DNA of 64,000 nt from Minisyncoccota bacterium (GCA_958295675.1 OY282360.1:466026-530025); one strand, 5' to 3'; counted from the stretch's first letter, positions 9,017 through 42,956 are shown. Numbers and translations are program-made. Notes: a model not told the origin generated them from the letters alone.

Positions 9017-9159
9017 GTGACCTCCTGTGGTCTCCGTTGTGAAAGGGCAAAAAGCAATCTGCCACCTAACATATAGTATGCATATATCAGTATAATATGT
9101 CAATAATTCTACCAAAAAATACACTTTTTTCAATATGTTTTGTTGTTTGGTGCGTACTA

Positions 9160-9192
9160 TAAAAAATCCCACCAGCGTTTCCACTGGTGGGA
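9160..9192 (-). terminator. Rho-independent terminator (cccaccagcgtttccactggtggg), copy 2
   Basis: Same hairpin as 8356-8379 and a poly-A on the plus strand (poly-U on minus). It is downstream of the LRV gene 9241..10230. Confidence 0.6.
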
Positions 9193-9240
9193 TAAGTGAG
9201 AGAATGCTCCTCGTTGGAGAAGACAAAGAAGATATACTGC

Positions 9241-10230: not shown

Positions 10231-10380
10231 CGTCGCACAATCCTTTTGTTGTGAAAGAGCAGTGAGGAGGTGACAACACCACCTAATATACAGTATGTAC
10301 ATATTAGTGCAATACATCAAGTATCCCCTACAGGAGTACATCTGTTTTTTAATATATTTTGTAGTTTGGTGTATGAAGTA

Positions 10381-10424
10381 AAAAAGAGTAAAAAATATCC
10401 CACCAGCGTTTCCACTGGTGGGAT
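10381..10424 (-). terminator. Rho-independent terminator (cccaccagcgtttccactggtggg), copy 3
   Basis: Identical hairpin and A/T-tract. Downstream of the LRV gene 10470..12053. Confidence 0.6.
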
Positions 10425-10469
10425 GAGTTGAGAGGTGATTCCTCTTGAGCGAATGGAATGGATGAGCAG

Positions 10470-12280: not shown

Positions 12281-12880
12281 TCAGAGTGAATCAAGCCACG
12301 CTTGTACATCTTGTACACCCGCATCCTCTGCCAGGGTAGCGAGTATTGCCAGCGGTGTGTTGGGATTGCGACTAACCACATACCGAACATACGCCTTTGC
12401 ATCCTCTGCCAGGGTAGCGAGTATTGCCGGCGGTGTGTTGGGATTAAGAGCAACCCCGTGCCGGGCACCCATATCCGCATCCTCTGCCAGGGTAGCGAGT
12501 ATTGCCGGCGGTGTGTTGGGATTACGACCAACCCTAAACCGAACATACCCATCCGCATCCTCTGCCAGTCGTGCAAGTGCTTCCGACGGTGTCATGCTGT
12601 TGCCAGCAACTGCCTCTCGCACTCTCCAAACTACATCCTCTGCCAGGGTAGCGAGAATTGCCGGCGGTGTGCGCGACGAAGAAGCAACCCTATACCGAAC
12701 CTCCCACTCCGCATCCTCTGCCATGACGGCGAGGGATGTCGGCGATATCGGTGCAGTGATGCGAGCAGCACTGGGGAGAGGTTCCAGTATTGCAATCCGC
12801 GACGCGTCTTCGGCATGCACCGAAACCGAAATGCCCGACAGGGTGAGTACGAGTACACTCAAAAGCGTGAATAGTTTCAT
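12281..12880 (-). CDS. Secreted LRV/HEAT-like repeat protein (199 aa)
   Basis: True start at ATG 12880 (MKLFTLLSVLVLTLSGISVSVHAEDA). The signal peptide is nearly identical to that of the 10470..12053 gene, and LRV repeats follow. Confidence 0.7.
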   Translation of the reverse strand: MKLFTLLSVLVLTLSGISVSVHAEDASRIAILEPLPSAARITAPISPTSLAVMAEDAEWEVRYRVASSSRTPPAILATLAEDVVWRVREAVAGNSMTPSEALARLAEDADGYVRFRVGRNPNTPPAILATLAEDADMGARHGVALNPNTPPAILATLAEDAKAYVRYVVSRNPNTPLAILATLAEDAGVQDVQAWLDSL

Positions 12881-12940
12881 TATGACCTCCTTTGGTCTCT
12901 GTGTGAAAGAACAGAAAGCAATCTGCTCCACCTAGTATAT

Positions 12941-17207: not shown

Positions 17208-17265
17208 ATCAGTGAGTATACCACATCACCGCCATAGAACTATCCGCCGTTTTACTTTTTCAATG

Positions 17266-20001: not shown

Positions 20002-20547
20002 CTAGTCACCTTCGTTCCTGATCAGCCATTCCAAAGCCCGCACTTTCTTATCATTCGCAACATCGCTTACTCTCCGAACAGCGCGGGTTGGCTTACCGGC
20101 TTTCGGATGCTCGGATGCTAACCTACGAACATATCTGCTCGGATCCGCGGCGAGTATGGCAACTATATGACCGGGAATATTCGGATTCCGGGCAAGTGCC
20201 GCCCGAACTCTTTTCTCCTCATCCGGCGACACAAGAATGCCGTAGAGATGCGGACTGAGATCCGAACGCTTGGCAAGTTCTTCGCGCACCCAACCACTCC
20301 GGTCCTCAACCAAAATGGATGACACCCGAAGAGGTAGGTTACACGGATACCGTGCGACCATAAGACGAACATCTTTATGCCTACTGGTCGCCAATCTTCC
20401 GAGTGTCCGGACGGAGGCGTTACATCCCGATTCTGCAAGAATCCTCTCCGCATCCACGGGCGATGTGTTCCTGGAAACTGTAGCCGCGGAAACAGGCGAC
20501 GCGGAAGTCAGTGCTGCCAAGAATACTGCAATCAAAAGATGCTTCAT
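20002..20547 (-). CDS. Secreted LRV/HEAT-like repeat protein (181 aa)
   Basis: Signal peptide MKHLLIAVFLAALTSASPVSAA. It has repeats of the ..D....VR..LA..P..P type. Confidence 0.55.
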   Translation of the reverse strand: MKHLLIAVFLAALTSASPVSAATVSRNTSPVDAERILAESGCNASVRTLGRLATSRHKDVRLMVARYPCNLPLRVSSILVEDRSGWVREELAKRSDLSPHLYGILVSPDEEKRVRAALARNPNIPGHIVAILAADPSRYVRRLASEHPKAGKPTRAVRRVSDVANDKKVRALEWLIRNEGD

Positions 20548-21844: not shown

Positions 21845-21995
21845 AATGATATTTTCTATATAATGCTGCAACTTGATAATATACATACAATATACCGCAC
21901 ATACGGACGATAATGCAACATACACAAAAGAAAATGAACATCCACTGTACAATCGGAGGGAGGAGAATGAATAAATATAGTATACTGCTTTCGGT

Positions 21996-22877
21996 ATGGC
22001 AGATATATGCAAAGAACTACGGAAACAACTGCATGAGTTAGATGTTCTGCGAGAATCGTGTGTATCTTTACTTGTCAGAAAAGGAATGGAATCTGCTGCG
22101 ACGAAGGAAACGATTGGAGAGTTTGATACACTTACGGAAGAATTGCATGATGCGGTGGTACTGTACAGACAGCCGTTTAATGAGCGTCTGGACGATATAG
22201 AGCGGAAGATGAAGAAGAAAGAAAACCTGACAAAATGGGAATACTGGGTGTTGTATGGTATAGATCTGCACCTGAAGGGTGGGAATCATGAGGAAAGAGA
22301 AAGACGAAAAGATATGGTGAAAAGATGGAGAAGTGATGAAGAAAAGAAACAAGATCTCGCACTTGCGCTTGACATCATTCCCGATCGTATTTCCGTGACT
22401 GAAAAAGAAGCACTTTCCGGTAACATACAGTACCATTATGGTGGTTTATGTCCGCCGGGTCATTTACATCCACCCCGTGGCATCGCCTCCACTTCTGGTG
22501 ATGAACTTATACTGCCTGAGGAGATTAGTGGTGGTCTTACTCTTAGTGCTCTCATCTCCGTACATAAACTTACCTTACCAAAAGAAATTGGTGGTTTTCT
22601 GATGCTTGACAATCTTACTTCTGCCGGCGCCGGACTGACTATGCCGGAGAAAGTTGGTGGTAGTCTGCACCTTGACAATCTCAAATCCATAAAGATTAAG
22701 CTCACTATGCCGAAGAAGGTTGGTGATAATCTGAATATTAGCGGACTCAGATCCATAAATACTAAGATCACCTTTCCGGAGGAGGTTGAAGGTATTATAT
22801 ATGTAAACAAAGCACTACCAGAAAACGAGAAAGAAGAACTGGAGAGACGATATCCGGGTAAGATTCGTGAGGTATAA
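21996..22877 (+). CDS. Member 1 of the MADICKELRK paralog family (293 aa; ~5 repeats)
   Basis: Conserved ~150-aa N-terminus, 20-aa repeats (L.L..L.SI.T.LTMP..VGG) and a conserved C-terminus ...ALPENEKEELERRYPGKIREV. Confidence 0.8.
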   Translation: MADICKELRKQLHELDVLRESCVSLLVRKGMESAATKETIGEFDTLTEELHDAVVLYRQPFNERLDDIERKMKKKENLTKWEYWVLYGIDLHLKGGNHEERERRKDMVKRWRSDEEKKQDLALALDIIPDRISVTEKEALSGNIQYHYGGLCPPGHLHPPRGIASTSGDELILPEEISGGLTLSALISVHKLTLPKEIGGFLMLDNLTSAGAGLTMPEKVGGSLHLDNLKSIKIKLTMPKKVGDNLNISGLRSINTKITFPEEVEGIIYVNKALPENEKEELERRYPGKIREV

Positions 22878-22909
22878 ATTTTAGTGAACCATGCTATCTT
22901 ACTCTTGGT

Positions 22910-24103
22910 ATGGCAGATATATGCAAAGAACTGCGGAAACAGTTACATGAGTTAGATGTTCTACGGAAAACTTGCGGCTCTTTGCTTCTCAGAGAAGGAA
23001 TAGAATCTGATACGGCGAAGAAAGCGGTTAGGGAGTTTGATACGCTGGCGGAAGAATTGCGTAGTGAAGTTGCGTTCTACAAACAACCATATAGCAAGCG
23101 TTTAGACGGCATAGAACGGAAGATAAATAATGATGAGAACCTGACAAAATGGGAATGCCGGGTGCTGTACAATGTAGACTGGTACCCGGGAATTATAAAT
23201 TTTGAAAATGAAGGAGAGAATAGACAAGAAGACATGGAAAAAAAGAGAAGCGATGAAGAGAAGAAACAGGATCTCGCGCTCGTGTTTGACACTACTCCCA
23301 ATCATATTTCTCTGACTGAAGAAGAAGCACTTTCCGGTAATATACGATATCATTATGGTGTTCTGACTTTTCGCTGGGAATCCATAGATACTGAGCTCAC
23401 TATGCCGGAGGAGGTTGGTCGTGGTCTGGATCTCAGGAGCATCACATCCATAAAGACTAATCTCACTATGCCGAAGAAGGTTGGTGGTGATCTGGATCTT
23501 TGCAATCTCAAATCCATAGATGCTGATCTCACTATGCCGGAGGAGGTTGGTGGTAATCTGGACTTCCTTTATCTCACATCCATAGATACTGATCTCACTA
23601 TGCCGAGAAAGATTGGTGGCTATCTGAATCTTGGCAATCTCAAATCCATAAATACTAAACTCACCATGCCGAAGAAGGTTGGTGGTGATCTGTATCTTAA
23701 CGGTCTCACATCCATAAAGACTAATCTCACTATGCCGGAGGAGGTTGGTGGTAATCTGCATCTTGGCGCTCTCACATCAATAAATACTAAACTCACCATG
23801 CCGAAAAAGGTTCGTGCCAATTTGGATCTTGGCGGACTCATATCCATAGATACTGATCTCACTATGCCGGAGGTGGTTACTGGCGATTTGTCTCTCAAAA
23901 AGCTCGCCTCCGCAAAGGAACTCATCCTCCCAGAAGAAATCAGGAGAAGCTTGTACCTCAACGGTCTCACCACTACCCAAGGTGTCGTCAAATGGCCATC
24001 AAAGGTTGGGCTTGTTGTGTATATAAACGAAGCACTGCCGCAGGAAGAGAGAGAAGAATTGGAGAAACGATATCCGGGTAAGATTCGTCGTGTAACAATT
24101 TAG
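22910..24103 (+). CDS. MADICKELRK family member 2 (397 aa; ~11 repeats)
   Basis: Same N- and C-terminal domains. The conserved intergenic junction (gtgaaccatgctatcttactcttggtATGGCAGATATATGC) precedes the start. Confidence 0.8.
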   Translation: MADICKELRKQLHELDVLRKTCGSLLLREGIESDTAKKAVREFDTLAEELRSEVAFYKQPYSKRLDGIERKINNDENLTKWECRVLYNVDWYPGIINFENEGENRQEDMEKKRSDEEKKQDLALVFDTTPNHISLTEEEALSGNIRYHYGVLTFRWESIDTELTMPEEVGRGLDLRSITSIKTNLTMPKKVGGDLDLCNLKSIDADLTMPEEVGGNLDFLYLTSIDTDLTMPRKIGGYLNLGNLKSINTKLTMPKKVGGDLYLNGLTSIKTNLTMPEEVGGNLHLGALTSINTKLTMPKKVRANLDLGGLISIDTDLTMPEVVTGDLSLKKLASAKELILPEEIRRSLYLNGLTTTQGVVKWPSKVGLVVYINEALPQEEREELEKRYPGKIRRVTI

Positions 24104-24128
24104 TGAACCATGCTATCTTACTCTTGGT

Positions 24129-25649
24129 ATGGCGGATATATGCAAAGAACTGCGGAAACAGTTACATGAGCTGGATACACTGCGGAAATCGTGTGGCTCT
24201 TTGCTTCTCAGAGAAGGAATGGAATCTGATGCGGCAAAGGAAACAGTTAGAAAGTTTGATACACTTGCGGAAGAATTGCGTGATGATGTTGCATTTTATA
24301 GACAACCGTTTGATGAGCGTTTGGACGATATAGAGCGGAAGATGAAGAAGAAAGAGAATCTGACAAAATGGGAATGTCGGGTGCTGTATGGTATAGATTG
24401 GTATCCGGGAGGTGCTGAGTATGAGGACGATAAAAGACGAAAAGAAATTGTAGAAAAATGGAGAAATGACGAAGAAAAGAAACAGGATCTCGCATGTGCG
24501 CTTGACATTACACCTGATCGTATTTCCGTGACTAAAGAAGAAGCACTTTCCGGTACCATACGATACCATTACGGTGCTCTGAATCTTGGCGGACTCATAT
24601 CCATAGATACTGATCTCACTATGCCGGAGGAGGTTGGTGGTGGTCTGTGGCTCAACGGTCTCACATCCATAAAGACTGATCTCACTATGCCGAAGGAGGT
24701 TGGTGGTCATCTGGATCTCCGCACTCTCACATCCATAAAGACTAAGCTCACTATGCCGAAGAAGATTGGTCGTTATCTGGATCTCCGCAGTCTCACATCC
24801 ATAGATACTGATCTCACTATGCCGGAGGAGGTTGGTGGTGATCTGTATCTCCACAAACTCACATCCATAAATACTGAGATCACCATGCCGGAGGAGGTTG
24901 GTCGTGATCTGTATCTTGGTGGACTCACATCCATAGATACTAAATACACTATGCCGAAGAAGATTGGTGGTGAACTGGATCTTTGCGGACTCACATCCAT
25001 AAATAATGAGCTCACTATGCCGGAGGAGGTTGGTAGTGATCTGTATCTTAACAATCTCAAATCCATAGATACTGATCTCACTATGCCGAAGAAGATTGGT
25101 CGTTATCTGGATCTCCGCAGTCTCAAATCCATAAAGACTGATCTTACTATGCCGGAGAAAGTTGGCACTAATCTGCAACTCAGCAGTCTCAAATCCATAG
25201 ATACTGATCTCACTATGCCGAAGGAGGTTGGTGGTGAACTGAATCTTAGCGGACTCACATCCATAAATACTAAGATCACTATGCCGAAGGAGGTTGGTGG
25301 TGATCTGTACCTCCACAAACTCACATCCATAGATACTGAGATCACTATGCCGGAGGAGGTTGGTGGTGATCTGTATCTTGACAATCTCAGATCTATAGAT
25401 ACTAAATTCACTATGCCGGAGGAGGTTGGTGGTGATCTGCAACTTGGCAATCTCAAATCCATAGATGCTGAGCTCACTATGCCGGAGGAGGTTGGTGATA
25501 ATCTGTATCTTGGTGGACTCACATCCACTCAAGGTATCACTGATTGGTCATCAAAGATTGGAGGTGTTATATATGTAAACGAAGCACTGCCAGGCAATGA
25601 GAAAGCAGCACTGGAGAAACGGTATCCGGGTAAGGTAGAATACAGGTGA
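24129..25649 (+). CDS. MADICKELRK family member 3 (506 aa; ~17 repeats)
   Basis: As above. This is the longest repeat array, made of LTSIDTDLTMPEEVGGDLYL-type units. Confidence 0.8.
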   Translation: MADICKELRKQLHELDTLRKSCGSLLLREGMESDAAKETVRKFDTLAEELRDDVAFYRQPFDERLDDIERKMKKKENLTKWECRVLYGIDWYPGGAEYEDDKRRKEIVEKWRNDEEKKQDLACALDITPDRISVTKEEALSGTIRYHYGALNLGGLISIDTDLTMPEEVGGGLWLNGLTSIKTDLTMPKEVGGHLDLRTLTSIKTKLTMPKKIGRYLDLRSLTSIDTDLTMPEEVGGDLYLHKLTSINTEITMPEEVGRDLYLGGLTSIDTKYTMPKKIGGELDLCGLTSINNELTMPEEVGSDLYLNNLKSIDTDLTMPKKIGRYLDLRSLKSIKTDLTMPEKVGTNLQLSSLKSIDTDLTMPKEVGGELNLSGLTSINTKITMPKEVGGDLYLHKLTSIDTEITMPEEVGGDLYLDNLRSIDTKFTMPEEVGGDLQLGNLKSIDAELTMPEEVGDNLYLGGLTSTQGITDWSSKIGGVIYVNEALPGNEKAALEKRYPGKVEYR

Positions 25650-25671
25650 ACCATGCTACCTTACTCTTGGT

Positions 25672-26532
25672 ATGGCGGATATATGCAAAGAACTGCGAAA
25701 ACAGTTACATGAGTTGGATGTCCTGCGTGAATCCTGTGTCTCAGTGCTTGTCAGAGAAGGAATAGAATCCGATACAGCAAAGGAAACGATTAAGAAATTT
25801 GATGCACTGGCAGAAGAATTGCGTGACAATGCTGTATTTTACAAACAACCGTTCAGTACACATTTGGATCGTATAGAGTGGAAGATAAATAATGATGAGA
25901 ACCTGACGAAATGGGAATACTGGGTGTTGTATGGTATAGATCAGCACCTGAAAGCTAACAATTATAAAGAAAAACGAAGACGAAGAGATATGGTGACAAA
26001 ATGGAGAAGCGACGAAGAAAAGAAACGGGATCTCGCATTTCTATTTGACACTACTCCTGACCGTATTTCTTTGACCGCAAAAGAAGCATGTTCCGGTACT
26101 ATACGATATCATTACGATGATCTGAATCTTGGTATTGTCACAGCCATATATTATGAATCCACTATGCCGGAGGAGGTTGGTGGTGATCTGTATTTTGGCA
26201 ATCTCAGACTCATACGGTATAAGACCACTATGCCGAAGAAGATTGGTGGTGAACTGGATCTTTGCGGACTCACATCCATAAATAATGAGCTCACTATGCC
26301 GGAGGAGGTTGGTGGTGGTCTGTGGCTCAACGGTCTCACATCCATAAAGACTGATCTCACTATGCCGAAGGAGGTTGGTGGTGATCTGCATCTCAATAAT
26401 CTAACTAGCACGCAAGGTATCACTAACTGGCCTGTCAAAATTATAGGAACTGTGAAAATAAACACAGCACTACCGAAAAATGAGAAAGTGGAAATGGAGA
26501 AACGGTATCCGGGTAAGGTAGAATACAGGTGA
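25672..26532 (+). CDS. MADICKELRK family member 4 (286 aa)
   Basis: As above. Confidence 0.8.
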   Translation: MADICKELRKQLHELDVLRESCVSVLVREGIESDTAKETIKKFDALAEELRDNAVFYKQPFSTHLDRIEWKINNDENLTKWEYWVLYGIDQHLKANNYKEKRRRRDMVTKWRSDEEKKRDLAFLFDTTPDRISLTAKEACSGTIRYHYDDLNLGIVTAIYYESTMPEEVGGDLYFGNLRLIRYKTTMPKKIGGELDLCGLTSINNELTMPEEVGGGLWLNGLTSIKTDLTMPKEVGGDLHLNNLTSTQGITNWPVKIIGTVKINTALPKNEKVEMEKRYPGKVEYR

Positions 26533-26554
26533 ACCATGCTACCTTACTTTTGGT

Positions 26555-27496
26555 ATGGCAGACACAACCAGAAAGAGAAACATATGCGAAGAACTGCGGG
26601 AACAATTGAATAAATTGGACATTCTGCGGAAATCGTGTGGCTCTTTGCTTCTCAGAGAAGGAATAGAATCTGATGCGGCAAAGAAAACGATTGGAAAGTT
26701 TGATACGCTGGCGGAAGAATTACATGATGCGGTGGTACTGTACAGACAGCCGTTTAATGAGCGTTTAAACGGTATAGAGTGGAAGATAAAGAACAAAAAG
26801 GACCTGACAAAATGGGAATGTCGGGTGTTGTATGAGATTGATTGGTATTCGGAATTTTATGAGCATGAGGAGGATTTAAGACGGGAAGATATAGAAGTAA
26901 GGAGGAGTGACAAAGAAAAGAAACAGGATCTTGCGCTTGCGTTTGATACCACTCCTAACCGTATTTCCGTGACCGAAGAAGAAGCGATATCAGGCGATAT
27001 ACGGTACCATTACGGTCTTCTGGATCTTAGCAAACTCACATCCATAGATACTGAACTTACCATGCCGAAGGAGGTTGGTGGTGATCTGTTTCTTGGCGAT
27101 CTCAAATCCATAGATACTAAATGCATTATGCCGGAGAAGGTTGGTGGTGGTCTGTATCTTGACAATCTCAGATCTATAGATACTAAATGCACTATGCCGA
27201 AGGAGGTTGGTGGTATTCTGAGTCTTCGCGGACTCACATCCATAAAGACTAAATTCACTCTGCCGGAGGTGGTTGGTGGTCCTCTGAACTTCCTTAATCT
27301 CGAATCCATAGACACTGATCTCACTATGCCGGAGGTAGTTGGTGGTGACCTGTATCTCAATAATCTAACTAGCACGCAAGGTATCACTAACTGGCCTGTC
27401 AAAATTATAGGAACTGTACATGTGAATCAAGCACTGCCAGACAACGAGAAAGCAGCACTGGAGAAACGGTATCCGGGTAAGATTCGTCAGGTATAA
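26555..27496 (+). CDS. MADICKELRK family member 5 (313 aa; N-terminus variant MADTTRKRNICEELREQL)
   Basis: As above. Confidence 0.8.
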   Translation: MADTTRKRNICEELREQLNKLDILRKSCGSLLLREGIESDAAKKTIGKFDTLAEELHDAVVLYRQPFNERLNGIEWKIKNKKDLTKWECRVLYEIDWYSEFYEHEEDLRREDIEVRRSDKEKKQDLALAFDTTPNRISVTEEEAISGDIRYHYGLLDLSKLTSIDTELTMPKEVGGDLFLGDLKSIDTKCIMPEKVGGGLYLDNLRSIDTKCTMPKEVGGILSLRGLTSIKTKFTLPEVVGGPLNFLNLESIDTDLTMPEVVGGDLYLNNLTSTQGITNWPVKIIGTVHVNQALPDNEKAALEKRYPGKIRQV

Positions 27497-27528
27497 ATTT
27501 TAGTGAACCATGCTACCTTACTCTTGGT

Positions 27529-28482
27529 ATGGCGGATATATGCACAGAACTGCGAAAACAACTGCATGAGTTAGATGTTCTGCGGGAATCGTGTGGCTCT
27601 TTGCTTCTCAGAGAAGGAATAGAATCCGATACAGCAAAGGAAACGGTTAGGAAATTTGATGCACTGGCGGAAGAATTGCATGATGCGGTTGCATTGTACA
27701 AACAGCCGTTCAGTGAGCGTTTGGACAACATAGAACGGAAGATGGAGGACAAGAAGAACCTGACAAAATGGGAATGTCGGGTGCTGTATGGTATAAATCT
27801 GCACTTGAATGGTATAGATCTGCACTTGAAAGGTAGCAGTTATGAGGAAAAAAAAAGACGACAAGATATGGTAGAAAAATGGAGAAGTGACGAAGAAAAG
27901 AAACGGGATCTCGCACTCGCGCTTGACATCATTCCCGATCGTATTTCCGTGACTGAAGAAGAAGCACTTTCCGGTAACATACGATATCATTACGATGATC
28001 TGAATCTTGGTGGACTCACATCCATAAACATAAAGACTGAGATCACTATGCCAGAGGAAGTTAGTGGTAATCTGAATCTCTTTTTTCTCAAATCCATAGA
28101 TACTAATTTCACCTTTCCGGAGAATATTGATGGTTATCTGAGCCTACACAAACTCACATCCATAGATACTGAGATCACTATGCCAGAGGAGGTTGGTGGT
28201 GAGCTGGATCTTGAAAGTCTCACATCCATAAAAACTAAGCTCACTATGCCGAAGAAGATTGGTGATTATCTGAGCCTACACAGTCTCACATCCATAGACA
28301 CTGATCTCACTATGCCGGAGGTAGTTGGTGGTGACCTGTATCTCAATAATCTAACTAGCACGCAAGGTATCACTAACTGGCCTGTCAAAATTATAGGAAC
28401 TGTACATGTGAATCAAGCACTGCCAGACAACGAGAAAGCAGCACTGGAGAAACGGTATCCGGGTAAGATTCGTCAGGTATAA
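27529..28482 (+). CDS. MADICKELRK family member 6 (317 aa)
   Basis: As above. Its C-terminal 50 aa are identical to those of member 5. Confidence 0.8.
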   Translation: MADICTELRKQLHELDVLRESCGSLLLREGIESDTAKETVRKFDALAEELHDAVALYKQPFSERLDNIERKMEDKKNLTKWECRVLYGINLHLNGIDLHLKGSSYEEKKRRQDMVEKWRSDEEKKRDLALALDIIPDRISVTEEEALSGNIRYHYDDLNLGGLTSINIKTEITMPEEVSGNLNLFFLKSIDTNFTFPENIDGYLSLHKLTSIDTEITMPEEVGGELDLESLTSIKTKLTMPKKIGDYLSLHSLTSIDTDLTMPEVVGGDLYLNNLTSTQGITNWPVKIIGTVHVNQALPDNEKAALEKRYPGKIRQV

Positions 28483-28514
28483 ATTTTAGTGAACCATGCT
28501 ACCTTACTCTTGGT

Positions 28515-29327
28515 ATGGCGGATATATGCACAGAACTGCGAAAACAACTGCATGAGTTAGATGTTCTGCGGAAATCGTGTGGCTCTTTGCATCTCAAAGA
28601 AGGAATGGAATCTGATGCGGCAAAGGAAACGATTGGAAAGTTTGATACGCTGGCGGAAGAATTGCGTGATGCTGCGGTATTCTACAAACAGCCGTATAAC
28701 GAGTGCCTGAAGGGTATAGAGTGGAAGATAAAGAACAAAAAGAACCTGACAAAGTGGGAATGTCGGGTGCTATACCGTGTGGACAGTAAGCATCCGGGAG
28801 GTATCAATGCTATTGATATGGAAAGGCAACTTTTTCTAGAGAAAAGGAGAAGTGACAAAGAGAAGAAACAGGATCTCGCGCTCGTGTTTGATACCACTTC
28901 CAATCGTATTTCTTTGACTGAAGAAGAAGCACTTTCCGGTAACATACGGTACCATTACGGTGATTTAGATCTTGAAGGCATTACTGACGCTCAAGAACTT
29001 AAGGATCTCACACTACCGGAAGAAGTTAGTGGTAATATGGATCTCTATCATCTTATCTCTGCTGAAGGATTCACGCTGCCAAGAAAAATTGGTGGCACTC
29101 TAGATCTCAGCAATCTCACCTCTGCTGAGAAACTTACACTACCGGAGGAGATCAATTTATTTTTATATATCCAAAATCTCACCACTGTCCAAGGTATTAT
29201 CAAATGGCCATCAAATGTTGGGGGTGCAGTGTACACAAACATTGCATTACCCCCGAAAGAGGCGGAAAAACTAAGGAAACGATATCCGAATAAAGTTGTT
29301 TGTTTTGATTCGGATATAGGAAGCTAA
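28515..29327 (+). CDS. MADICKELRK family member 7 (270 aa; divergent LTSAE-type repeats)
   Basis: Conserved N-terminus. The repeats (LTLPEEVSGNMDLYHLISAEGFTLPRKIGGTLDLSNLTSAEKLTLPEE) resemble those of member 9. Confidence 0.75.
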   Translation: MADICTELRKQLHELDVLRKSCGSLHLKEGMESDAAKETIGKFDTLAEELRDAAVFYKQPYNECLKGIEWKIKNKKNLTKWECRVLYRVDSKHPGGINAIDMERQLFLEKRRSDKEKKQDLALVFDTTSNRISLTEEEALSGNIRYHYGDLDLEGITDAQELKDLTLPEEVSGNMDLYHLISAEGFTLPRKIGGTLDLSNLTSAEKLTLPEEINLFLYIQNLTTVQGIIKWPSNVGGAVYTNIALPPKEAEKLRKRYPNKVVCFDSDIGS

Positions 29328-29339
29328 AGAAAGATATTG

Positions 29340-29390
29340 TATTAATCTTATTTCTACGAAAAGAGCCGGTACACAAAAAAATGCTCCGCG
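29340..29390. terminator. Bidirectional hairpin terminator (tgctccgcgtcaacggagca) between convergent genes
   Basis: aaaaaaatgctccgcgtcaacggagcactt lies between the stop of member 7 (+) and the stop of the HAD gene (-). Confidence 0.5.
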
Positions 29391-29972
29391 TCAACGGAGC
29401 ACTTGTGAATTACCGGCAATGTCCTGAATAACTCTGTACAACGCATTCCACGAGTCAACTCGTGTAACGGAAGAACTGACAGAATCATTGCGGTTGTTTG
29501 CCCACAAAAACATGCACAGATTCGGCACAATGCCGACGAGATGCTCAAGGACTTCAGCACTATCGTCAACAAAGAAATCAAGTCCGGTGGCAGCAGATGC
29601 CTTGCTTTCCTTCCAACCGACACCAGTAAACGGAAGATGCAGACCGTGTGTTTCTGACCACAAACGAGCGGTTTCAAGCGCAACATCTCTGCGCGCGGTA
29701 ATCACACGCACATCATGCCCTTCGGCAAGAAGTTGACCGATGCACTCAACGGCACCTTTGACTGGTTTGGTTCGAAAAAGAAAATCCGTATTGTAAATGA
29801 GCGGATGAAACTCATCGTAGTACTGCTCACGAGTGAGTATTCCCTTTTCCAACATCACTGAGGACCGCAAATCCGCCGGATCAACATCTATACCGCACAA
29901 CTCCCGTATGCCGAGCGTTTTCACCTCCTCATCGTTCGCGATGACACCGTCAAAATCAAGTCCGAGACGCAT
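29391..29972 (-). CDS. HAD-superfamily hydrolase (5'(3')-deoxyribonucleotidase-like)
   Basis: N-terminal HAD motif I LGLDFDGVIAND. The ~190-aa size is typical of NT5C-like HAD phosphatases. Confidence 0.5.
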   Translation of the reverse strand: MRLGLDFDGVIANDEEVKTLGIRELCGIDVDPADLRSSVMLEKGILTREQYYDEFHPLIYNTDFLFRTKPVKGAVECIGQLLAEGHDVRVITARRDVALETARLWSETHGLHLPFTGVGWKESKASAATGLDFFVDDSAEVLEHLVGIVPNLCMFLWANNRNDSVSSSVTRVDSWNALYRVIQDIAGNSQVLR

Positions 29973-30036
29973 GGTTTCCTCCTATTCAATGCCGTCTGGA
30001 TGCAGTATACCATAAAATGCTCCGCGAAATATGTGA

Positions 30037-30480
30037 CTACTTACCGCAGCACTTCGGACACTTACAACCGTAAGGTTTGATAAAATCATTGAAATATTCT
30101 TTCCCGTAATCATAAGAAAGCTCCTCACCATCTTTAATATTCCGGCGCGCATAGATATAGATTTTTCCACGCACAATATCTGTCTCACAATTCGGACGGC
30201 AGGAATGATTAATGTATCGCGCCATATTGTACCGCGGTGTGCCGTCCACTACCTTCCTGCTATTCACTTCAAAAAGATACTTTCCTTTCTTTGTATCCGC
30301 TTCTTCCGGCGTGAGTATCGGTCCGTAATACTCAATAACAAAATCACCTCGTTTAATATTTTCACCGGCAAAAAGACCGAATCCGGCGGATGACTTTCCG
30401 ACTGTATATGTATATTTACCGACACGCGGGCGATGTATAGCAACATGCGACTTCCCGCCTTTTTTCAGTGTTCTCTGCAT
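30037..30480 (-). CDS. SET-domain protein-lysine methyltransferase-like protein with C-terminal Cys cluster
   Basis: GFGLFAGENIKRGDFVIEYYG...ARYINHSCRPNCE...ELSYDY (SET motifs NHSC and ELxxDY), followed by a post-SET-like CKCPKCCGK. Confidence 0.8.
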   Translation of the reverse strand: MQRTLKKGGKSHVAIHRPRVGKYTYTVGKSSAGFGLFAGENIKRGDFVIEYYGPILTPEEADTKKGKYLFEVNSRKVVDGTPRYNMARYINHSCRPNCETDIVRGKIYIYARRNIKDGEELSYDYGKEYFNDFIKPYGCKCPKCCGK

Positions 30481-30572
30481 ATACCCTGCAGTATGACAGC
30501 AGTATGCTAAACCGCCCGCGCATCGGTGGAATACTTAACGACATACTTGCTTGCTTTTGGTATGCCGAACAT

Positions 30573-31148
30573 CTACGGCAGTGCAATACCCTCCTGACGG
30601 GCAATGGTGGCAAGCGCGTGAAATATACGAAGATGCAGTTCGGCATCATAGAGTGCCGAATGTCGTTTATCTTCCTCATTTTCAATACCGAGCGTCTCAA
30701 GCATAGTGGTCATACCGGCAGTGCCGAGCACCATAAGCGAAAGTGATGAGATGTCCATCGTTCGCCGTGAAAGCGGCAATTTAGAATCAGTCCGGTAAGT
30801 GTCCCAAAGCGCATCCAACATTAAATAATCAAAATATGCATTCGCGGCAATGATATGCAAATCGGTATCCGCATCAATGCCATACCGCTTCACTATCTCC
30901 TGCTCAAACTCTCTGAGAAACTGTTCCGCATCAATGCCGTGTGTCTGCGCCGCTTCTCTGCCGATACCATGTACTTCTTCAGCTTCTGTATCCCAGGAAA
31001 ATGTGTCAGGCACATAATTAATATTCCATTCCTTTTTCCCTTTCGGCTGCAGATGTTCATCCAAATATATGACACCACATTGAATAACCTGTGATGAACA
31101 AAAATCAACGCCGGTAGTTTCAGTGTCTAAAGCGATAAATCTATGCAT
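30573..31148 (-). CDS. DEDDh 3'-5' exonuclease (DnaQ/epsilon-like)
   Basis: Exo I motif FIALDTETTG and the ~190-aa size. Confidence 0.7.
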   Translation of the reverse strand: MHRFIALDTETTGVDFCSSQVIQCGVIYLDEHLQPKGKKEWNINYVPDTFSWDTEAEEVHGIGREAAQTHGIDAEQFLREFEQEIVKRYGIDADTDLHIIAANAYFDYLMLDALWDTYRTDSKLPLSRRTMDISSLSLMVLGTAGMTTMLETLGIENEEDKRHSALYDAELHLRIFHALATIARQEGIALP

Positions 31149-32430
31149 ACGCCTGTTGTATAGGAGAAAAACCAACCTCTTTCATAGCAGATAGGATACC
31201 ATCGGGAGTCGTATCAAGCAGACGCTCACCGCCATTCACCTTGTCGGTGAACTCAACCTTCTTTTGTGCATGCGTCTTATCAGAGACAACCAACCGAACC
31301 GGAATACCGATAAGATCACAATCAGCGAATTTTTCTCCCGCGGATACATCCCGATCATCAAAAAGAACATCAAGACCGTGCTCCTGCAGCATGCGGTACA
31401 ACATATCGGCAGCAGTAAATGTTTCTTTTGAATCACCCAGCGCGATGAGATGCGCGCTGAACGGTGCCACAGACATAGGAAGCGACATACCGCTATCCTC
31501 GCCGTACTTCTCAACAATCACACCGAGCAAACGGGCAGGTCCGATACCATAGGAACCCATAAAAACAGGTTGCGGCTTGCCGTGCGCATCGGTATAGGTA
31601 AGATCAAGCGGTTCGGAATATTTTGTACCGAGTGTGAAAATATTACCGACTTCGGAAGCAGCAACCCGTTCCAAATCATTCTTCTGCAATCCAATCTTCT
31701 CAAGTGTTTCATCAGTGCACACTTCCTCGTTTACAGCAATCTTCTTTTTCGGATCTAGGTAAATAGTATCCTCGCCGGCGGGTATTACGGTTTGAAATTC
31801 ATCGCTGAAATCAGAAAAAGCGCCGCCGCTCGCGAATGTACGGTAAGTGTCATCACCTAAACCGACTCGCGTAAACACACGCATATATGCCTCGGCGCAT
31901 TGCTCGTAAAACACAGCATGCTGCTCCTCATCAGCGCAAAAAGAGTACAAATCTTTCATCATAAATTCACGAGTACGCATGATACCGCTCTTCGCGCGCT
32001 TTTCATTCCGAAATTTGGTCTGAAACTGATACACATACAGAGGCACATCACGGTATGAATGAATATGATTTCGCATCATCTCGGTTACCGGCTCCTCGTG
32101 TGTCCAACCGAAACCGACATCACCGCCGGCACTGAGGTGTGAACGAAACCATATTTCATCGGCATCATCACCCCATCGTCCGGATTTCTCCCACACATCA
32201 GGACTCTGCAGACCGCTCATGCTCAGTTCCTGACCGCCGATTGATATCATCTCTTCGCGGATAATGCGTATAATCTTTTCCAAAGAACGAAGCCCGAGTG
32301 GAAGAAAACTGTAGACACCGGCCATAGTTTTATGAATATACCCGGCACGGATAAGAAGCTTAGCATTGCGCGCGACCTCATCAACCGGCACCTCCTTGCG
32401 TGTTTTCGTCACTAACACTGACTGTTTCAT
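31141..32430 (-). CDS. proS: Prolyl-tRNA synthetase (compact form, 429 aa)
   Basis: Class II motifs (FRNEKRAKSGIMRTREFMMKDLYSF, GSYGIGPARLLGVIVE) and a C-terminal anticodon-binding domain. Confidence 0.88.
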   Translation of the reverse strand: MKQSVLVTKTRKEVPVDEVARNAKLLIRAGYIHKTMAGVYSFLPLGLRSLEKIIRIIREEMISIGGQELSMSGLQSPDVWEKSGRWGDDADEIWFRSHLSAGGDVGFGWTHEEPVTEMMRNHIHSYRDVPLYVYQFQTKFRNEKRAKSGIMRTREFMMKDLYSFCADEEQHAVFYEQCAEAYMRVFTRVGLGDDTYRTFASGGAFSDFSDEFQTVIPAGEDTIYLDPKKKIAVNEEVCTDETLEKIGLQKNDLERVAASEVGNIFTLGTKYSEPLDLTYTDAHGKPQPVFMGSYGIGPARLLGVIVEKYGEDSGMSLPMSVAPFSAHLIALGDSKETFTAADMLYRMLQEHGLDVLFDDRDVSAGEKFADCDLIGIPVRLVVSDKTHAQKKVEFTDKVNGGERLLDTTPDGILSAMKEVGFSPIQQAYA

Positions 32431-32495
32431 GCATTACAGTGTACCATACTCAACCATAATTACATAAGAAAAAATGATAGTACACTATTTTTAGT

Positions 32496-33419
32496 ATGGC
32501 AGATATATGCACAGAACTGCGGAAACAACTGCATGAGTTAGATGTTCTGCGGAAATCGTGTGGCTCTGTGCTTCTCAGAGAAGGAATGGAATCTGATGCG
32601 GCAAAGAAAACGATTGGAAAGTTTGATACGCTGGCGGAAGAATTGCGTGATGTGGTGGTACTGTACAAACAGCCGTTTGATGAGCGTTTGGACAACATAG
32701 AACGGAAGATGGAGGACAAGAAGAATCTGACAAAATGGGAATGTTGGGTGCTGTATGGTATAGATAAGTATCTGAAAGATAACAATATTTTTGAAAGAGA
32801 AAGACGAAAAAATATAGTGAAAAGATGGAGAAGCGATGAAGAGAAGAAACAGGATCTCGCATATGCGCTTGACATCATTCCCGATCATATTTCCGTGATT
32901 AAAGAAGAAGCACTTCTCGGTACTATACGGTATCATTATGATGATCTGAATCTTGGCAAACTCACATCCATAAATACTAAGTTCACCATGCCGGAGGTAG
33001 TTGGTGGTGATCTAAATCTTGGCGATCTCACATCCATAGATACTGATCTCACCATGCCGGAGGTGGTTGGTCGTAATCTAAATCTTGGCGGTCTCACATC
33101 CATAAAGACTAATCTCACTATGCCGAAGGAGGTTGGTGGTCATCTGAATCTTGGCGGTCTCACATCCATAGACACTGAACTTACCATGCCGAAGAAGATT
33201 GGTGGTTATCTGAAGCTTCTCAGTCTCACATCCATAGATACTGAGCTCACTCTGCCGGAGGAGGTTGGTGGTCTGGATCTCGGTAATCTCACCACTACTC
33301 ATGGTATTATCAACTGGCCTATAAAAATTAGAAACCTTATATTTGCAAACCCAGCATTGCCAGACAACGAAAGAGAAGAACTGGAGAAATGGTATCCGGG
33401 TAAGGTTCGATACGAGTGA
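32496..33419 (+). CDS. MADICKELRK family member 8 (307 aa)
   Basis: Same N-terminus, LTSIDTDLTMPEVVGG repeats and the C-terminal ...ALPDNEREELEKWYPGKVRYE. It forms a second cluster separated from the first by four housekeeping genes. Confidence 0.8.
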   Translation: MADICTELRKQLHELDVLRKSCGSVLLREGMESDAAKKTIGKFDTLAEELRDVVVLYKQPFDERLDNIERKMEDKKNLTKWECWVLYGIDKYLKDNNIFERERRKNIVKRWRSDEEKKQDLAYALDIIPDHISVIKEEALLGTIRYHYDDLNLGKLTSINTKFTMPEVVGGDLNLGDLTSIDTDLTMPEVVGRNLNLGGLTSIKTNLTMPKEVGGHLNLGGLTSIDTELTMPKKIGGYLKLLSLTSIDTELTLPEEVGGLDLGNLTTTHGIINWPIKIRNLIFANPALPDNEREELEKWYPGKVRYE

Positions 33420-33441
33420 ACCATGCTACCTTACTTTTGGT

Positions 33442-35094
33442 ATGGCAGATATATGCAAAGAACTGCGGAAACACTTGAAAGTATTGGACGGATTGCGGGA
33501 ATCGTGTCTCTCTCTGCTTGTCAGAGAAGGAATAGAATCTGATGCGGCAAAGAAAACGATTGGAAAGTTTGATACGCTGGCGGAAGAATTGCGTGCTGCT
33601 GCGGTATTCTATAGAAAGCCACTTAGTGAACATTTAGATAACATAGAACGGAAGATATCACAAGGTGTAACTTGCACGAAACAGGAATACCGTCTGCTGT
33701 ACAACATAGATCAATATCCGGGAGATGTTAGATATGGGAAATATAAAAGACGAGAAGAAGAAATAGAAAAAGGAAGAAGTGACAAAGAGAAGAAACAGGA
33801 TCTCGCGCTTGCGCTTGATACCACTCCTGATCGTATTTCTTTGAGTTCAGTAAGCGTGCTATTGCGTGGCAAACAGTATCATTATCATTACGGTAATTTA
33901 AATTTCAATGTGATTCCCCGTCGTTTCATCTCCGCCGGAATCACCCTGCCGAAAGAAGTCTGGGGCAATCTAACTCTTGATGAATCCATCTTCATCAATG
34001 CCACCTCCTCCGTCGTCAGGGGAGTTACCCTGCCACAGAAGATTAATGGTGATCTGTGGCTCAAAAATCTTACCTCCGCAGAAGGGCTCACGCTACCGGA
34101 GAAAATTAGTGGCGATCTACTGCTTGATAAACTCACCTCTGCGGAAGGACTCGAATTGCCGGAGAATATTGGTGGTAATCTGGATCTTCGCGGGCTCACC
34201 TCTGCGGAAAATCTTGAATTACCGAAAGAGACTAGCGGCGAGTTGGATCTTAGCGGGCTCACCTCCGCGAAAGGGCTTGAGTTGCCGGAGAAGATTTGTG
34301 GTAATCTGGATCTTCGCGGGCTCACCTCTGCGGAAGGGCTTATACTGCCGGAGAAGATTGGTGGTAATCTGGATCTTCGCGGGCTCACCTCTGCGGAAGG
34401 GCTTATACTGCCGGAGAATATTGGTGGTAATCTGAATCTTCGCGGGCTCACCTCTGCGGAAAATCTTGAATTACCGAAAGAGACTAGCGGCGAGTTGGAT
34501 CTTAGCGGGCTCACCTCCGCGAAAGGGCTTGAGTTGCCGGAGAAGATTTATGGTCTGTCTCTCAACGGCCTCACCTCCGCAGAAGGGCTTGAGTTGCCGA
34601 AGGAGATTAGAATAAGTTTGGATCTCAACGGGCTCACCTCCGCGGAGGGACTCATCTTGCCGGACAAAATTAACGTTGCTCTGTCTCTCAACGGCCTCAC
34701 CTCTGCGAAAGGGCTTGAGTTGCCGGAGAAGGTTAACACACTGGAACTCAACGGTCTCACCTCCGCGGAAGGGCTTGAGTTGCCGAAGGAGATTAGAGTA
34801 AGTTTGGATCTCAGAGGTCTCATTTCCGATGAGGGACTGACCCTGCCGGAAGAGATTGGTGGTAATCTGGATCTTCGCGGGCTCACCTCTGCGGAAGGGC
34901 TTATACTGCCGGAAGAAATCGGTGGCAGTCTGTGGCTCAACAAGCTCACCACTATCCAGGGTTTCGTCAAATGGCCGTCAAGTGTGAGTTATGATATATA
35001 TTTAAACAGAAGACTACCAGCGGAAGAAATAGAAAATTTGTATAAACTACATCCGCCGTATAAAATTAATTTTAGTCGTTCTATTGCAGTTTAA
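33442..35094 (+). CDS. MADICKELRK family member 9 (550 aa; ~25 divergent 21-aa repeats GLTSAEGLELPEKIGGNLDLR)
   Basis: The true start is at ATG 33442, preceded by the conserved junction. The ORF track extension from 33343 is read-through. It has the conserved N-terminus and a distinct repeat subtype. Confidence 0.78.
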   Translation: MADICKELRKHLKVLDGLRESCLSLLVREGIESDAAKKTIGKFDTLAEELRAAAVFYRKPLSEHLDNIERKISQGVTCTKQEYRLLYNIDQYPGDVRYGKYKRREEEIEKGRSDKEKKQDLALALDTTPDRISLSSVSVLLRGKQYHYHYGNLNFNVIPRRFISAGITLPKEVWGNLTLDESIFINATSSVVRGVTLPQKINGDLWLKNLTSAEGLTLPEKISGDLLLDKLTSAEGLELPENIGGNLDLRGLTSAENLELPKETSGELDLSGLTSAKGLELPEKICGNLDLRGLTSAEGLILPEKIGGNLDLRGLTSAEGLILPENIGGNLNLRGLTSAENLELPKETSGELDLSGLTSAKGLELPEKIYGLSLNGLTSAEGLELPKEIRISLDLNGLTSAEGLILPDKINVALSLNGLTSAKGLELPEKVNTLELNGLTSAEGLELPKEIRVSLDLRGLISDEGLTLPEEIGGNLDLRGLTSAEGLILPEEIGGSLWLNKLTTIQGFVKWPSSVSYDIYLNRRLPAEEIENLYKLHPPYKINFSRSIAV

Positions 35095-36274: not shown

Positions 36275-36499
36275 ACAGACGGCAGTATACCACTACTGTG
36301 AAGTAATCTGCCGGACAATATCTTGAGTGCGATTATCCACCATCCGCCGCATATGTATCATCGCGCTCCGGCGCGCGCTGTCGCTTGCCGCTGTTCTGCC
36401 CTTCCCGACTAATCGCGCCAAACAATACACAATTTTACACTTGATGGTGTGTGAATACATGCTGTGCTGCATTACATATACTATAGCACGGTCAATATA

Positions 36500-37402
36500 T
36501 CAGAAAAATGTCTGTTGATCTGTTTCTACAAAGCGCCTTCTGTGCAAAACAGCAATAAGGACAAGGAGTTCCGCGGCAATAACGGTCAATGCTATCGCTA
36601 TCCACATCAGCATCTGATTGCTGTAATCAGGAATATTAACGATTGTAGTCGGCGCAGAATGTGCATCAGATGAGGATGTCCGCTGTATAGATGCGGAATC
36701 CAGATCGGCAGATGCACTCTGTGATTTAAATGTCGGTTTCACCGCCACGGAAACCGGAGATTCCTGCTGCAGCTCTTTCAGAACTTCCTGTTCAATTTCC
36801 TCTACCACTTCTTCTTCAACCGCAACTTCCTCCTGACCGGGTTCGGTATTCATAACGGTTATCGGATTAACCGCAATCGCGCCGGGAGTTGCCGGACCGG
36901 CAATCTGTTGCCCATTAACAACATGCAGTGATGCGCCGGTACCGGACGCCCGAGGATCCGGCGTGTAGAAGAATGAGAACACTGTCTCTTTGGTCTGCAT
37001 ATTGTAAATATCCAGACCTTCACCGATACCGCCCTGCTGCCGCAAACTGAATTTTGAAAGAAACAGAGGCGAGGAATATGCCGGATATTCATTCATAAAA
37101 ACATCTTCATCCTGCACTATAACACCGACCTCACCCGGCGACAAATCTTTGATACCATCACCTGACTCCCTGATGTAGTGACGGGTATTCCCTTCCACGA
37201 AACGAAACGCGGTCACATCAAGGGTCTGCTGACTGTCATTTATAATCTCAAGCCATTCATAACCGCTATCTTTCTTTTGAGGGGGATCATACATCACTTC
37301 CGTAATAGCAATCTGCGCGGAAGCGAGGATGATCAGACCGTGAACAGCACAAATCGCGCTTATTCCGAAGATGCAGAATTGAGATGCAAATCCGCGTACC
37401 AT
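36500..37402 (-). CDS. Lamin-tail-domain (LTD) surface protein with signal peptide and C-terminal TM anchor
   Basis: LTD signature ITEVMYDPPQKKDSGYEWLEIINDS...LDV. Signal peptide, and a C-terminal hydrophobic anchor WIAIALTVIAAELLVLIAVL. Confidence 0.72.
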   Translation of the reverse strand: MVRGFASQFCIFGISAICAVHGLIILASAQIAITEVMYDPPQKKDSGYEWLEIINDSQQTLDVTAFRFVEGNTRHYIRESGDGIKDLSPGEVGVIVQDEDVFMNEYPAYSSPLFLSKFSLRQQGGIGEGLDIYNMQTKETVFSFFYTPDPRASGTGASLHVVNGQQIAGPATPGAIAVNPITVMNTEPGQEEVAVEEEVVEEIEQEVLKELQQESPVSVAVKPTFKSQSASADLDSASIQRTSSSDAHSAPTTIVNIPDYSNQMLMWIAIALTVIAAELLVLIAVLHRRRFVETDQQTFF

Positions 37403-37434
37403 ACCCGACTACAGGAGTATGTTCATCACATGTC

Positions 37435-39849: not shown

Positions 39850-40004
39850 ATACCTTATAAAGAACATTAATAAACAGTCCGTGCCGCCCGCACTATCGTG
39901 TTAACCATAAAAAAATAGTACATCAAAAAATATAGCGCGAATTATTTTTTACACATAGCAAACGACATATATAAATATCGGAAACAATCTATATTGGAAA
40001 CAAT

Positions 40005-42935: not shown

Positions 42936-42956
42936 TACTAATCAGTATACCACCAC

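Follow-up and report, generated by a model that had tools for sequence, protein, structure and literature searches.

Tandem arrays of predicted leucine-rich-repeat proteins with recombination footprints in a small Paceibacterota genome

We describe a family of nine genes (g1 to g9, Table 1) from a 64,000-nt stretch of the genome of a Minisyncoccota bacterium (GCA_958295675.1 OY282360.1:466026-530025), which we will call the window. The nine proteins have conserved ends and a repeat core of variable length. We propose, with a probability of about 55%, that the family is a lineage-specific tandem expansion of a repertoire of soluble binding proteins of the leucine-rich repeat (LRR) type, which is diversified by the shuffling of repeat units and in which each gene has its own promoter.

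According to our proposal, the family derives from a widespread linker-LRR module, with a hairpin in place of an N-terminal region of ~350 amino acids. The paralogs would differ chiefly in the number of repeat units and at four positions around the first strand of each unit. New variants would arise by the duplication or deletion of units, units would be shuffled by crossovers within the conserved framework, and gene conversion would act between neighboring genes. Each gene would be transcribed from its own promoter, which for seven of the nine lies in the conserved junction, to give a leaderless or nearly leaderless mRNA. The result would be a repertoire of different binding specificities for variable partner molecules of a host cell or of phages, with the hairpin serving for docking or oligomerization. 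In an episymbiont whose genome is minimal, the likeliest targets would be molecules that come from the host or from phages. Several elements of this proposal are inferences: that the proteins serve in binding, what kind of ligand they have, where in the cell they are, and that the junctions work as promoters.

Nine intact genes with shared ends and a variable repeat core

The genes lie on the plus strand in two blocks, with g1 to g7 head to tail at 21996-29327 and g8 and g9 at 32496-35094. Between the blocks are four genes on the minus strand, for an NT5C-like nucleotidase, a SET-domain protein, an RNase T-like exonuclease, and the prolyl-tRNA synthetase ProRS. All nine open reading frames (ORFs) are intact, and they encode proteins of 270-550 amino acids; both the layout and the lengths agree with an earlier reading of this DNA (the original prediction). 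The genes are separated by 22-32 nt within the arrays and occupy 9,744 nt, or 15% of the window. The array runs opposite to the prevailing orientation of genes, and GC skew flips across it. Searching the window with four parts of the protein (tblastn) gave exactly nine copies of the family and no fragments elsewhere. For g9, the mechanical ORF opens at a TTG (33343), and the family's ATG and the junction place the start at 33442. (Antisense ORFs of up to 456 amino acids on the minus strand, across the repeat arrays at 22068-25532 and 33888-34970, are by-products of the periodic sequence and not genes.)

The nine genes are distinct and functional. Between pairs of N-terminal regions, the synonymous divergence (dS) is 0.27-1.2, and the median ratio of non-synonymous to synonymous divergence (dN/dS) is 0.33, so the N terminus is under purifying selection.

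Table 1. Positions of the family genes, of the signals near them, and of a second group of repeat proteins in the window
Feature	Position	Strand	Description
g1	21996-22877	+	293 aa, 5 repeat units; C-terminal cap without its first half
g2	22910-24103	+	397 aa, 9 units of 22 aa
g3	24129-25649	+	506 aa, 14 units of 22 aa; 66-nt period, 14.5 copies, 80% match
g4	25672-26532	+	286 aa, 4 units
g5	26555-27496	+	313 aa, 5 units; 6-aa insertion after Ala2
g6	27529-28482	+	317 aa, 5 units; protein chosen for modeling
g7	28515-29327	+	270 aa, 3 units of 21 aa
g8	32496-33419	+	307 aa, 5 units of 22 aa
g9	33442-35094	+	550 aa, ~16 units of 21 aa, 63-nt period
Conserved junction TGCTAYCTTACTYTTGGTATGGC	22892-22914, 24111-24133, 25654-25676, 26537-26559, 27511-27533, 28497-28519, 33424-33446	+	7 exact copies
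-10-like box TAGTATACT	21978-21986	+	9 nt upstream of g1 ATG
-10-like box TAGTACACT	32478-32486	+	9 nt upstream of g8 ATG
TRGTAYACT, matches include	17215-17223, 21978-21986, 32438-32446, 32478-32486, 36284-36292, 42944-42952		
LRV proteins	8426-9244, 9241-10839, 10470-12053, 12281-12931, 20002-20547	-	PF01816 LRV/LRV_2

An alignment of the nine proteins has three parts: a shared N-terminal region of ~150 amino acids (which ends in RYHYG or RYHYD in all nine proteins), the repeat core, and a shared C-terminal tail. The N-terminal region comprises a lineage-specific helical hairpin (roughly residues 1-60) with conserved Cys5 and Cys22, followed by a helical linker/cap module (roughly residues 61-150). 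It had been described as a domain that cannot be assigned to any known family; it does match no domain library, but it is a composite of the hairpin and a widespread linker/cap module rather than a single unit.

The repeat unit, with consensus xLxLxxLTSIxTxLTMPEEVGG, has a period of 22 amino acids (66 nt) in g1-g6 and g8 and of 21 amino acids (63 nt) in g7 and g9. This corrects the period of 20 in the original prediction (whose written unit itself has 22 letters). Similarly, the number of units is not 4 to ~17 but ranges from 3 in g7 to ~16 in g9, plus one capping unit; Tandem Repeats Finder reports 14.5 copies in g3 and 12.5 in g9. The proteins end 40-45 residues beyond the last unit, with a capping unit and a helix (...LP.nEk..LekrYPgK) and no further domain. 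This tail was expected in all nine proteins and is present in all of them, although in g1 its first half is missing.

To place the fold, we used an AlphaFold2 model of g6, with paralogs and relatives in the input alignment; structure prediction had been suggested as a check, and it gives helices followed by an LRR solenoid. The model is confident overall (pLDDT 86.5, pTM 0.78). The hairpin is modeled as helices 2-28 and 34-57 (pLDDT 63-76) and the linker (61-146) as five to six short helices, with pLDDT mostly above 85 except in a variable loop (92-102). The solenoid (roughly residues 153-294) has four short strands per unit and is capped by a terminal helix (300-309). It can be superposed on solved LRR domains, and among the structures that match best are secreted effectors and surface proteins. 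Foldseek found no significant match in the PDB, and searching the PDB by sequence found no relative of the family.

On this model, the repeat core belongs to the LRR fold class, as a non-canonical solenoid of short units. Members of the LRR superfamily have tandem units of 20-30 residues with a conserved hydrophobic pattern, and the family agrees with this: there are 3-16 tandem units per protein, with little or no variation at seven positions (L1, L3, L6, I9, M15, P16, and V19). No LRR model of the Pfam LRR clan matches any of the nine proteins at E ≤ 1, and NCBIfam gave nothing. When the paralogs were scanned against Pfam, NCBIfam, PHROGs, and PADLOC, the only hits were noise, either below threshold or driven by the repeats. 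The core had been called BspA/LRR-like: the LRR part of that description is borne out by the model, but the BspA part is not, as there is no match to PF13306 (LRR_5) even at the relaxed threshold.

Recombination and rapid change within the family

Across the 44 units of 22 amino acids, variation is concentrated at positions 22, 2, 4, and 5, with an entropy of 2.8-3.0 bits, versus 0-0.8 bits for the framework (L1, L3, L6, S8, I9, T14, M15, P16, V19, and G20). If L1 and L3 are equated with L4 and L6 of the canonical LxxLxLxxN, then the hypervariable positions would correspond to canonical positions 3, 5, 7, and 8. In characterized LRR proteins, these are exposed residues that contact the ligand.

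The arrays also contain perfect repeats that cross unit and gene boundaries. A tract of 282 nt (27304-27585, identical to 28290-28571) includes the 3' end of one gene, the junction, and the 5' end of the next gene. Units 3-4 of g4 are a chimera of units 7 and 2 of g3, with perfect tracts of 88 and 93 nt that overlap by 24 nt within the conserved framework. And g9 contains a perfect internal duplication of 114 nt (34184 and 34436), offset by four units. These tracts of 88-282 nt, together with the chimeric units, show that gene conversion has occurred. The original prediction of a recombination-prone family thus holds.

The family also evolves quickly, at least in the one pair of orthologs available. 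P0010, a singleton paralog, shares 81-82% identity with its syntenic ortholog P0009 (dN 0.11, dN/dS 0.41), while six proteins encoded next to them are 97.4-99.0% identical (dN 0.004-0.012). With the four hypervariable positions, this also supports the prediction that the family is diversifying. We consider the arrays to be a compact natural example of LRR diversification through the shuffling of units.

Duplications are also seen in the linker. In g6, a 21-nt unit is present in 2.3 copies (GINLHLN/GIDLHLK, 27788-27835), and P0012, a paralog from outside the window, has a duplication of 23 amino acids (NGIERKIKKKENLTKWEC...) within the linker region. Both are in frame, which implies that slippage is not restricted to the LRR core.

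The window lies on a host chromosome of 724,510 nt (724.5 kb). A word-indexed search listed 15 family members on this chromosome; since the list omits g3 and g9, the genome has at least 17 paralogs. The 17 known paralogs amount to ~17 kb, or ~2.3% of the genome. That a metabolism-poor organism devotes this much of a 724-kb genome to one fast-evolving family singles the family out as important to how the organism lives, the most plausible context being its encounters with a host or with phages. Sequence comparison places the host in the Paceibacterota (Patescibacteria, or candidate phyla radiation, CPR). For the seryl-tRNA synthetase SerRS of the window, the identity is 73-74% with the enzymes from two closed Paceibacterota chromosomes, which measure 641 and 697 kb, and 68% with the enzyme from a Kaiserbacteria metagenome-assembled genome.

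Relatives, junctions, and genomic setting

The exact family, with N terminus MADICKELRKQL..., is confined to one lineage. Beyond the host genome, the word-indexed search turned up a single ortholog, which is from a related strain, and some fragments on very small contigs (P0016, P0027-P0029). Pattern scans based on the family alignment found no relative in GTDB species genomes, IMG/VR viral contigs, or JGI metagenomes. So the suggestion that the family might be lineage-specific is correct for the exact family but not for its linker-LRR-tail module, which is widespread.

The wider module emerged from a search with a profile hidden Markov model of the N-terminal region, which gave 584 representatives at E ≤ 1e-3. 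In nearly all of these, the match is confined to profile positions from ~32-63 to 151 and lies mid-way in proteins of 600-900 amino acids, which we will call long forms. Across these profile positions (32/63-151), the E values of the long forms run from ~1e-19 to 1e-10. The long forms have a linker motif in common (...L.FLY.iD......D.....R..KkDLa..f.....IS.T.EEAL.G.I.YHYG.L), and those we inspected continue with 21-residue units (LxLxxLTSAEGLxLPExIGG) and a "...L..KYP.L" tail. The linker, the units, and the tail are homologous to those of the window's family, and the predicted structures are the same. In contrast, the N-terminal ~350 amino acids of the long forms (WxKYxQGS/WVKYEQGS...TGWCTA...GDFYVYYS...PRxAIRM) are absent from our nine proteins, which open with the 60-residue hairpin instead. 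Also, the long forms that we examined are single genes among housekeeping genes, while the window's family is tandemly amplified. No partner genes are conserved between the neighborhoods of the long and short forms.

Searching with one long form (P0041) gave more than 2,290 clusters at E ≤ 1e-10, and all of them are annotated as hypothetical. Few of these clusters carry an organism name, and those that do are from Parcubacteria, Uhrbacteria, Falkowbacteria, or Paceibacterota. At least one widespread long-form member is from a genome with Firmicutes-like neighboring genes. From these comparisons, we view the linker, the LRR units, and the C-terminal tail as one widespread and undescribed module, mostly of Patescibacteria. 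The family in the window is a short form of it, which opens with the hairpin where the long forms have their N-terminal region. As the linker, the short LRR units, and the KYP cap occur together in thousands of proteins and are absent from Pfam and NCBIfam, the module could become a family model.

The hairpin may also occur on other scaffolds. Another short form, P0033 (272 amino acids), aligns to residues 32-311 of g6 with 31% identity (E 2e-33). On an unrelated metagenome contig (L087, 9661-11857), the gene for P0033 is directly followed by a gene for a WD40 propeller, and the first 60 residues of the WD40 protein are 38% identical to the hairpin of P0033 (BLASTP, E 1e-7). Because of this similarity, the Cys-bearing hairpin seems, at this single locus, to be a portable module that is carried on different repeat scaffolds. 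An hhalign comparison of the N-terminal profile with the WD40 protein was not significant, and a profile search with only the hairpin found two fragments and nothing more.

The junctions between the genes are strongly conserved. The sequence TGCTAYCTTACTYTTGGTATGGC is present in seven exact copies, versus zero expected by chance. The original prediction of a nearly invariant junction is accurate for these seven genes, but the junction is absent before g1 and g8, which are the first genes of their blocks. The mean pairwise identity of the junctions is 95.7%, versus 59-82% for the third codon positions in the coding sequence next to them, so the junction is under selection of its own. Internal junctions contain TGCTAYCTT (a TGnTAnnnT pattern) 9 nt before the ATG. 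Before g1 and g8 there are -10-like boxes instead (Table 1), and the box before g1 is probably the promoter for the first gene of its block.

Similar boxes occur elsewhere in the window. TRGTAYACT has nine matches (mostly TGGTATACT), versus 0.76 expected, and six of the nine are 7-9 nt before a start codon (of SerRS, ProRS, TyrRS, a Mur ligase, g1, and g8). The housekeeping genes of the window often have TGGTAYACT at this distance from the ATG. Furthermore, we saw no Shine-Dalgarno sequence upstream of most of the 16 gene starts that we inspected. Given their position, we interpret the TRGTAYACT sequences as -10 boxes that drive leaderless or nearly leaderless mRNAs, and the genome as a whole seems to rely on such mRNAs and on extended -10 promoters. 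The box in the junction has the same spacing as the consensus boxes, which suggests that mRNAs from the arrays are also leaderless or nearly so. The junction is probably a promoter or initiation signal for each gene. The original prediction included the junction in a recombination-prone architecture; its near-invariance is real, but a signal for expression explains it better than one for recombination. The junction also makes it possible to test whether the genes of a tandem array each have a leaderless promoter.

The window also encodes RpoB/RpoC, several aminoacyl-tRNA synthetases, UvrABC, proteins with lamin-tail domains, and LRV repeat proteins. The LRV proteins are a second expansion of repeat proteins, with five members on the minus strand that contain HEAT-like leucine-rich-repeat-variant repeats (Table 1); the one at 20002-20547 has an N terminus like a signal peptide. 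The GC content at 10-12 kb is unusually high (56.5%, versus ~47% elsewhere). The SET-domain protein between the two arrays is at 30037-30480, and on contig L087 a methyltransferase-SET fusion (5263-6372, plus strand) is encoded 3.3 kb upstream of the short-form relative. SET proteins are thus near family members at two loci only, which could be a coincidence. Together with the lamin-tail-domain proteins (36500-39867), they add a "eukaryote-like" flavor to the domain content. Two large ORFs have no match in Pfam. The first (55063-60489, plus strand, 1,808 amino acids) lies where the AT skew is extreme (0.44 at 58-60 kb) and the GC content is higher (~55%). The second (60575-63148, minus strand, 857 amino acids) was considered as a long form and rejected; it is not a member of the family.

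Alternative explanations and known LRR systems

Several points weigh against our proposal. The canonical Asn/Cys ladder of LRRs is missing: in the relevant segment (VGGxLxLxxLTS), the ladder position is leucine in 40 of 44 units. The first hydrophobic residue of the unit is also offset by one relative to the canonical LxxLxLxxN/CxL. The ratio of non-synonymous to synonymous changes is ~1.5 at the hypervariable codons and 0.49 at the framework codons, which is only suggestive, because we picked the positions after seeing how variable they are and compared units that are not orthologous; it is not a proper test for positive selection. Relaxed constraint could also account for the whole-gene dN/dS of the ortholog pair. 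Also, P0009 and P0010 have the same number of repeats, so the variation in repeat number between strains that the original prediction had suggested looking for is not seen in the only cross-strain pair of orthologs. A generic scan for sigma-70 promoters and terminators, which is uninformative here, gave no excess of sites, and our reading of the promoters is based on sequence patterns. Finally, the ligand, the expression, and the location of the proteins are predicted or inferred.

We considered that the proteins might instead be exported to interact with a host, as adhesins or as effectors that are delivered into host cells, like internalins, BspA/TpLRR proteins, the LRR proteins of Leptospira, or the LRR effectors of type III secretion systems (T3SS). 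We doubt this, but it deserves serious consideration. Patescibacteria with genomes this small are generally episymbionts, and secreted effectors and surface proteins are among the best structural matches to g6. About 8 of 75 sampled long forms (~11%), such as P0030 and P0032, have N termini that resemble signal peptides or those of lipoproteins, which implies that the module can work outside the cell. And in clade T1 of the oral Saccharibacteria (TM7), the 12-24 LRR proteins per genome have been interpreted as adhesion factors (PMC7739484). However, hydropathy shows no signal-peptide-like or transmembrane segment in any of our nine proteins (no dedicated predictor was used) or in any of 12 sampled short forms. 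The Kyte-Doolittle maxima of the nine proteins are at most 1.37 for 19-mers and at most 1.15 for 12-mers within the first 45 amino acids, and the proteins are acidic. The absence of a signal peptide was part of the original prediction, which also offered surface variation as a possible role; the first agrees with our results and the second is unsupported. Furthermore, the arrays do not adjoin any secretion-system genes, sortase motifs, or cell-wall anchors that we could find, and no T3SS is known in the Patescibacteria. Judging by their hydropathy, the nine proteins are soluble, and export is not supported.

Another explanation is that the family is a cytoplasmic repertoire for recognizing invaders, such as phage proteins, with the LRRs as variable sensors or decoys, as in immune receptors of the NLR type and others. 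Soluble proteins with hypervariable positions in the predicted binding surface, fast evolution, and many paralogs would all fit, and the hairpin on a WD40 propeller recalls the "small adaptor plus sensor repeats" logic of conflict systems. But that comparison is based on one locus, and neither the proteins nor the adjoining genes contain an NTPase, nuclease, TIR, or other effector domain that we could find. The lack of PADLOC matches and of relatives in viral contigs also makes a role in immunity seem unlikely.

A less probable alternative still is programmed variation, in which one or a few expressed genes are rewritten from donor cassettes, as in antigenic or phase variation or in a VLR-like assembly. 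The conserved 5' and 3' ends around a cassette-like variable core fit this, as do the perfect conversion tracts of up to 282 nt between neighboring copies and the chimeras at the level of units. However, all nine genes are complete, with a junction or a -10-like box and an N terminus under purifying selection, and none of them looks like a silent cassette. Nothing in the window was identified as a recombinase, invertase, or reverse transcriptase, and with dS of 0.3-1.2, most of the sequence is not being homogenized. We also considered that the genes might be targets of a diversity-generating retroelement, and rejected this because the window ORFs that we scanned include no reverse-transcriptase domain.

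Lastly, we reject an assembly artefact (including the artefact of a single gene that the original prediction had allowed for) or decaying pseudogenes: repeat-rich arrays are often misassembled and fragments of the family are found on very short contigs (P0016, P0027-P0029), but the nine ORFs are intact and distinct with dS of 0.27-1.2 and dN/dS of 0.33, the array is on a 724.5-kb contig that is recorded in two archives, and the paralog P0010 is identical on an independent long-read contig.

Our proposal of a soluble, shuffled LRR repertoire also has a bolder version, which we regard as a long shot: the family might be a recombination-driven repertoire of LRR receptors, intracellular or exported by an unconventional route, through which a symbiont with a minimal genome keeps gaining new specificities against its host or phages, as units are shuffled and genes converted among copies that each have a promoter. 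If so, the repertoire would be a bacterial counterpart, in its logic, of variable LRR-based recognition systems, and the 60-residue hairpin with its cysteines would serve as a portable module for docking, which WD40 propellers can carry as well.

Multigene families of LRR proteins with conserved ends and variable numbers of repeats are well known from host-associated bacteria, including the internalins, the Leptospira proteins, IpaH/SspH/YopM, and BspA-type proteins. The family resembles the T3SS effectors YopM, IpaH, SspH1, and SlrP, which have LPX repeats of 20 or 22 residues with an "LTS...LP" signature and a helical N-terminal cap, and which likewise form multi-copy families with conserved ends and variable numbers of LRRs. 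The fold and the unit length agree, and the similarity in sequence is marginal (SlrP, E 0.0068, with the long-form profile only). Unlike these effectors, the nine proteins lack the NEL ubiquitin-ligase domain, and their hairpin, linker, and C-terminal "KYP" cap are different; also, no T3SS genes are present among the window ORFs that we scanned. The Leptospira LRR proteins (LIC12234 and LIC11098) have canonical units of their own, of 23 residues, which Pfam recognizes, and share no flanking modules with our family; they are also secreted or on the surface and have signal peptides, unlike our family. The BspA/TpLRR proteins are set apart by PF13306 and by their signal peptides, both of which are lacking here; among the relatives, only P0030 matches PF13306 (E 9.4e-12).

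Within the CPR, the oral TM7 clade T1 also has an expansion of LRR proteins. Half of these proteins belong to one clade-specific gene cluster, and some of the genes are tandem insertions of one to three copies (PMC7739484). Those proteins are recognized as COG4886 LRRs and come from another class of Patescibacteria. The family in the window is therefore of a known kind, as lineage-specific LRR expansions occur in host-associated bacteria, CPR included. What is new is a subfamily that no profile library detects, with a previously undescribed hairpin and linker, clear footprints of recombination, and a junction that appears to carry a promoter.

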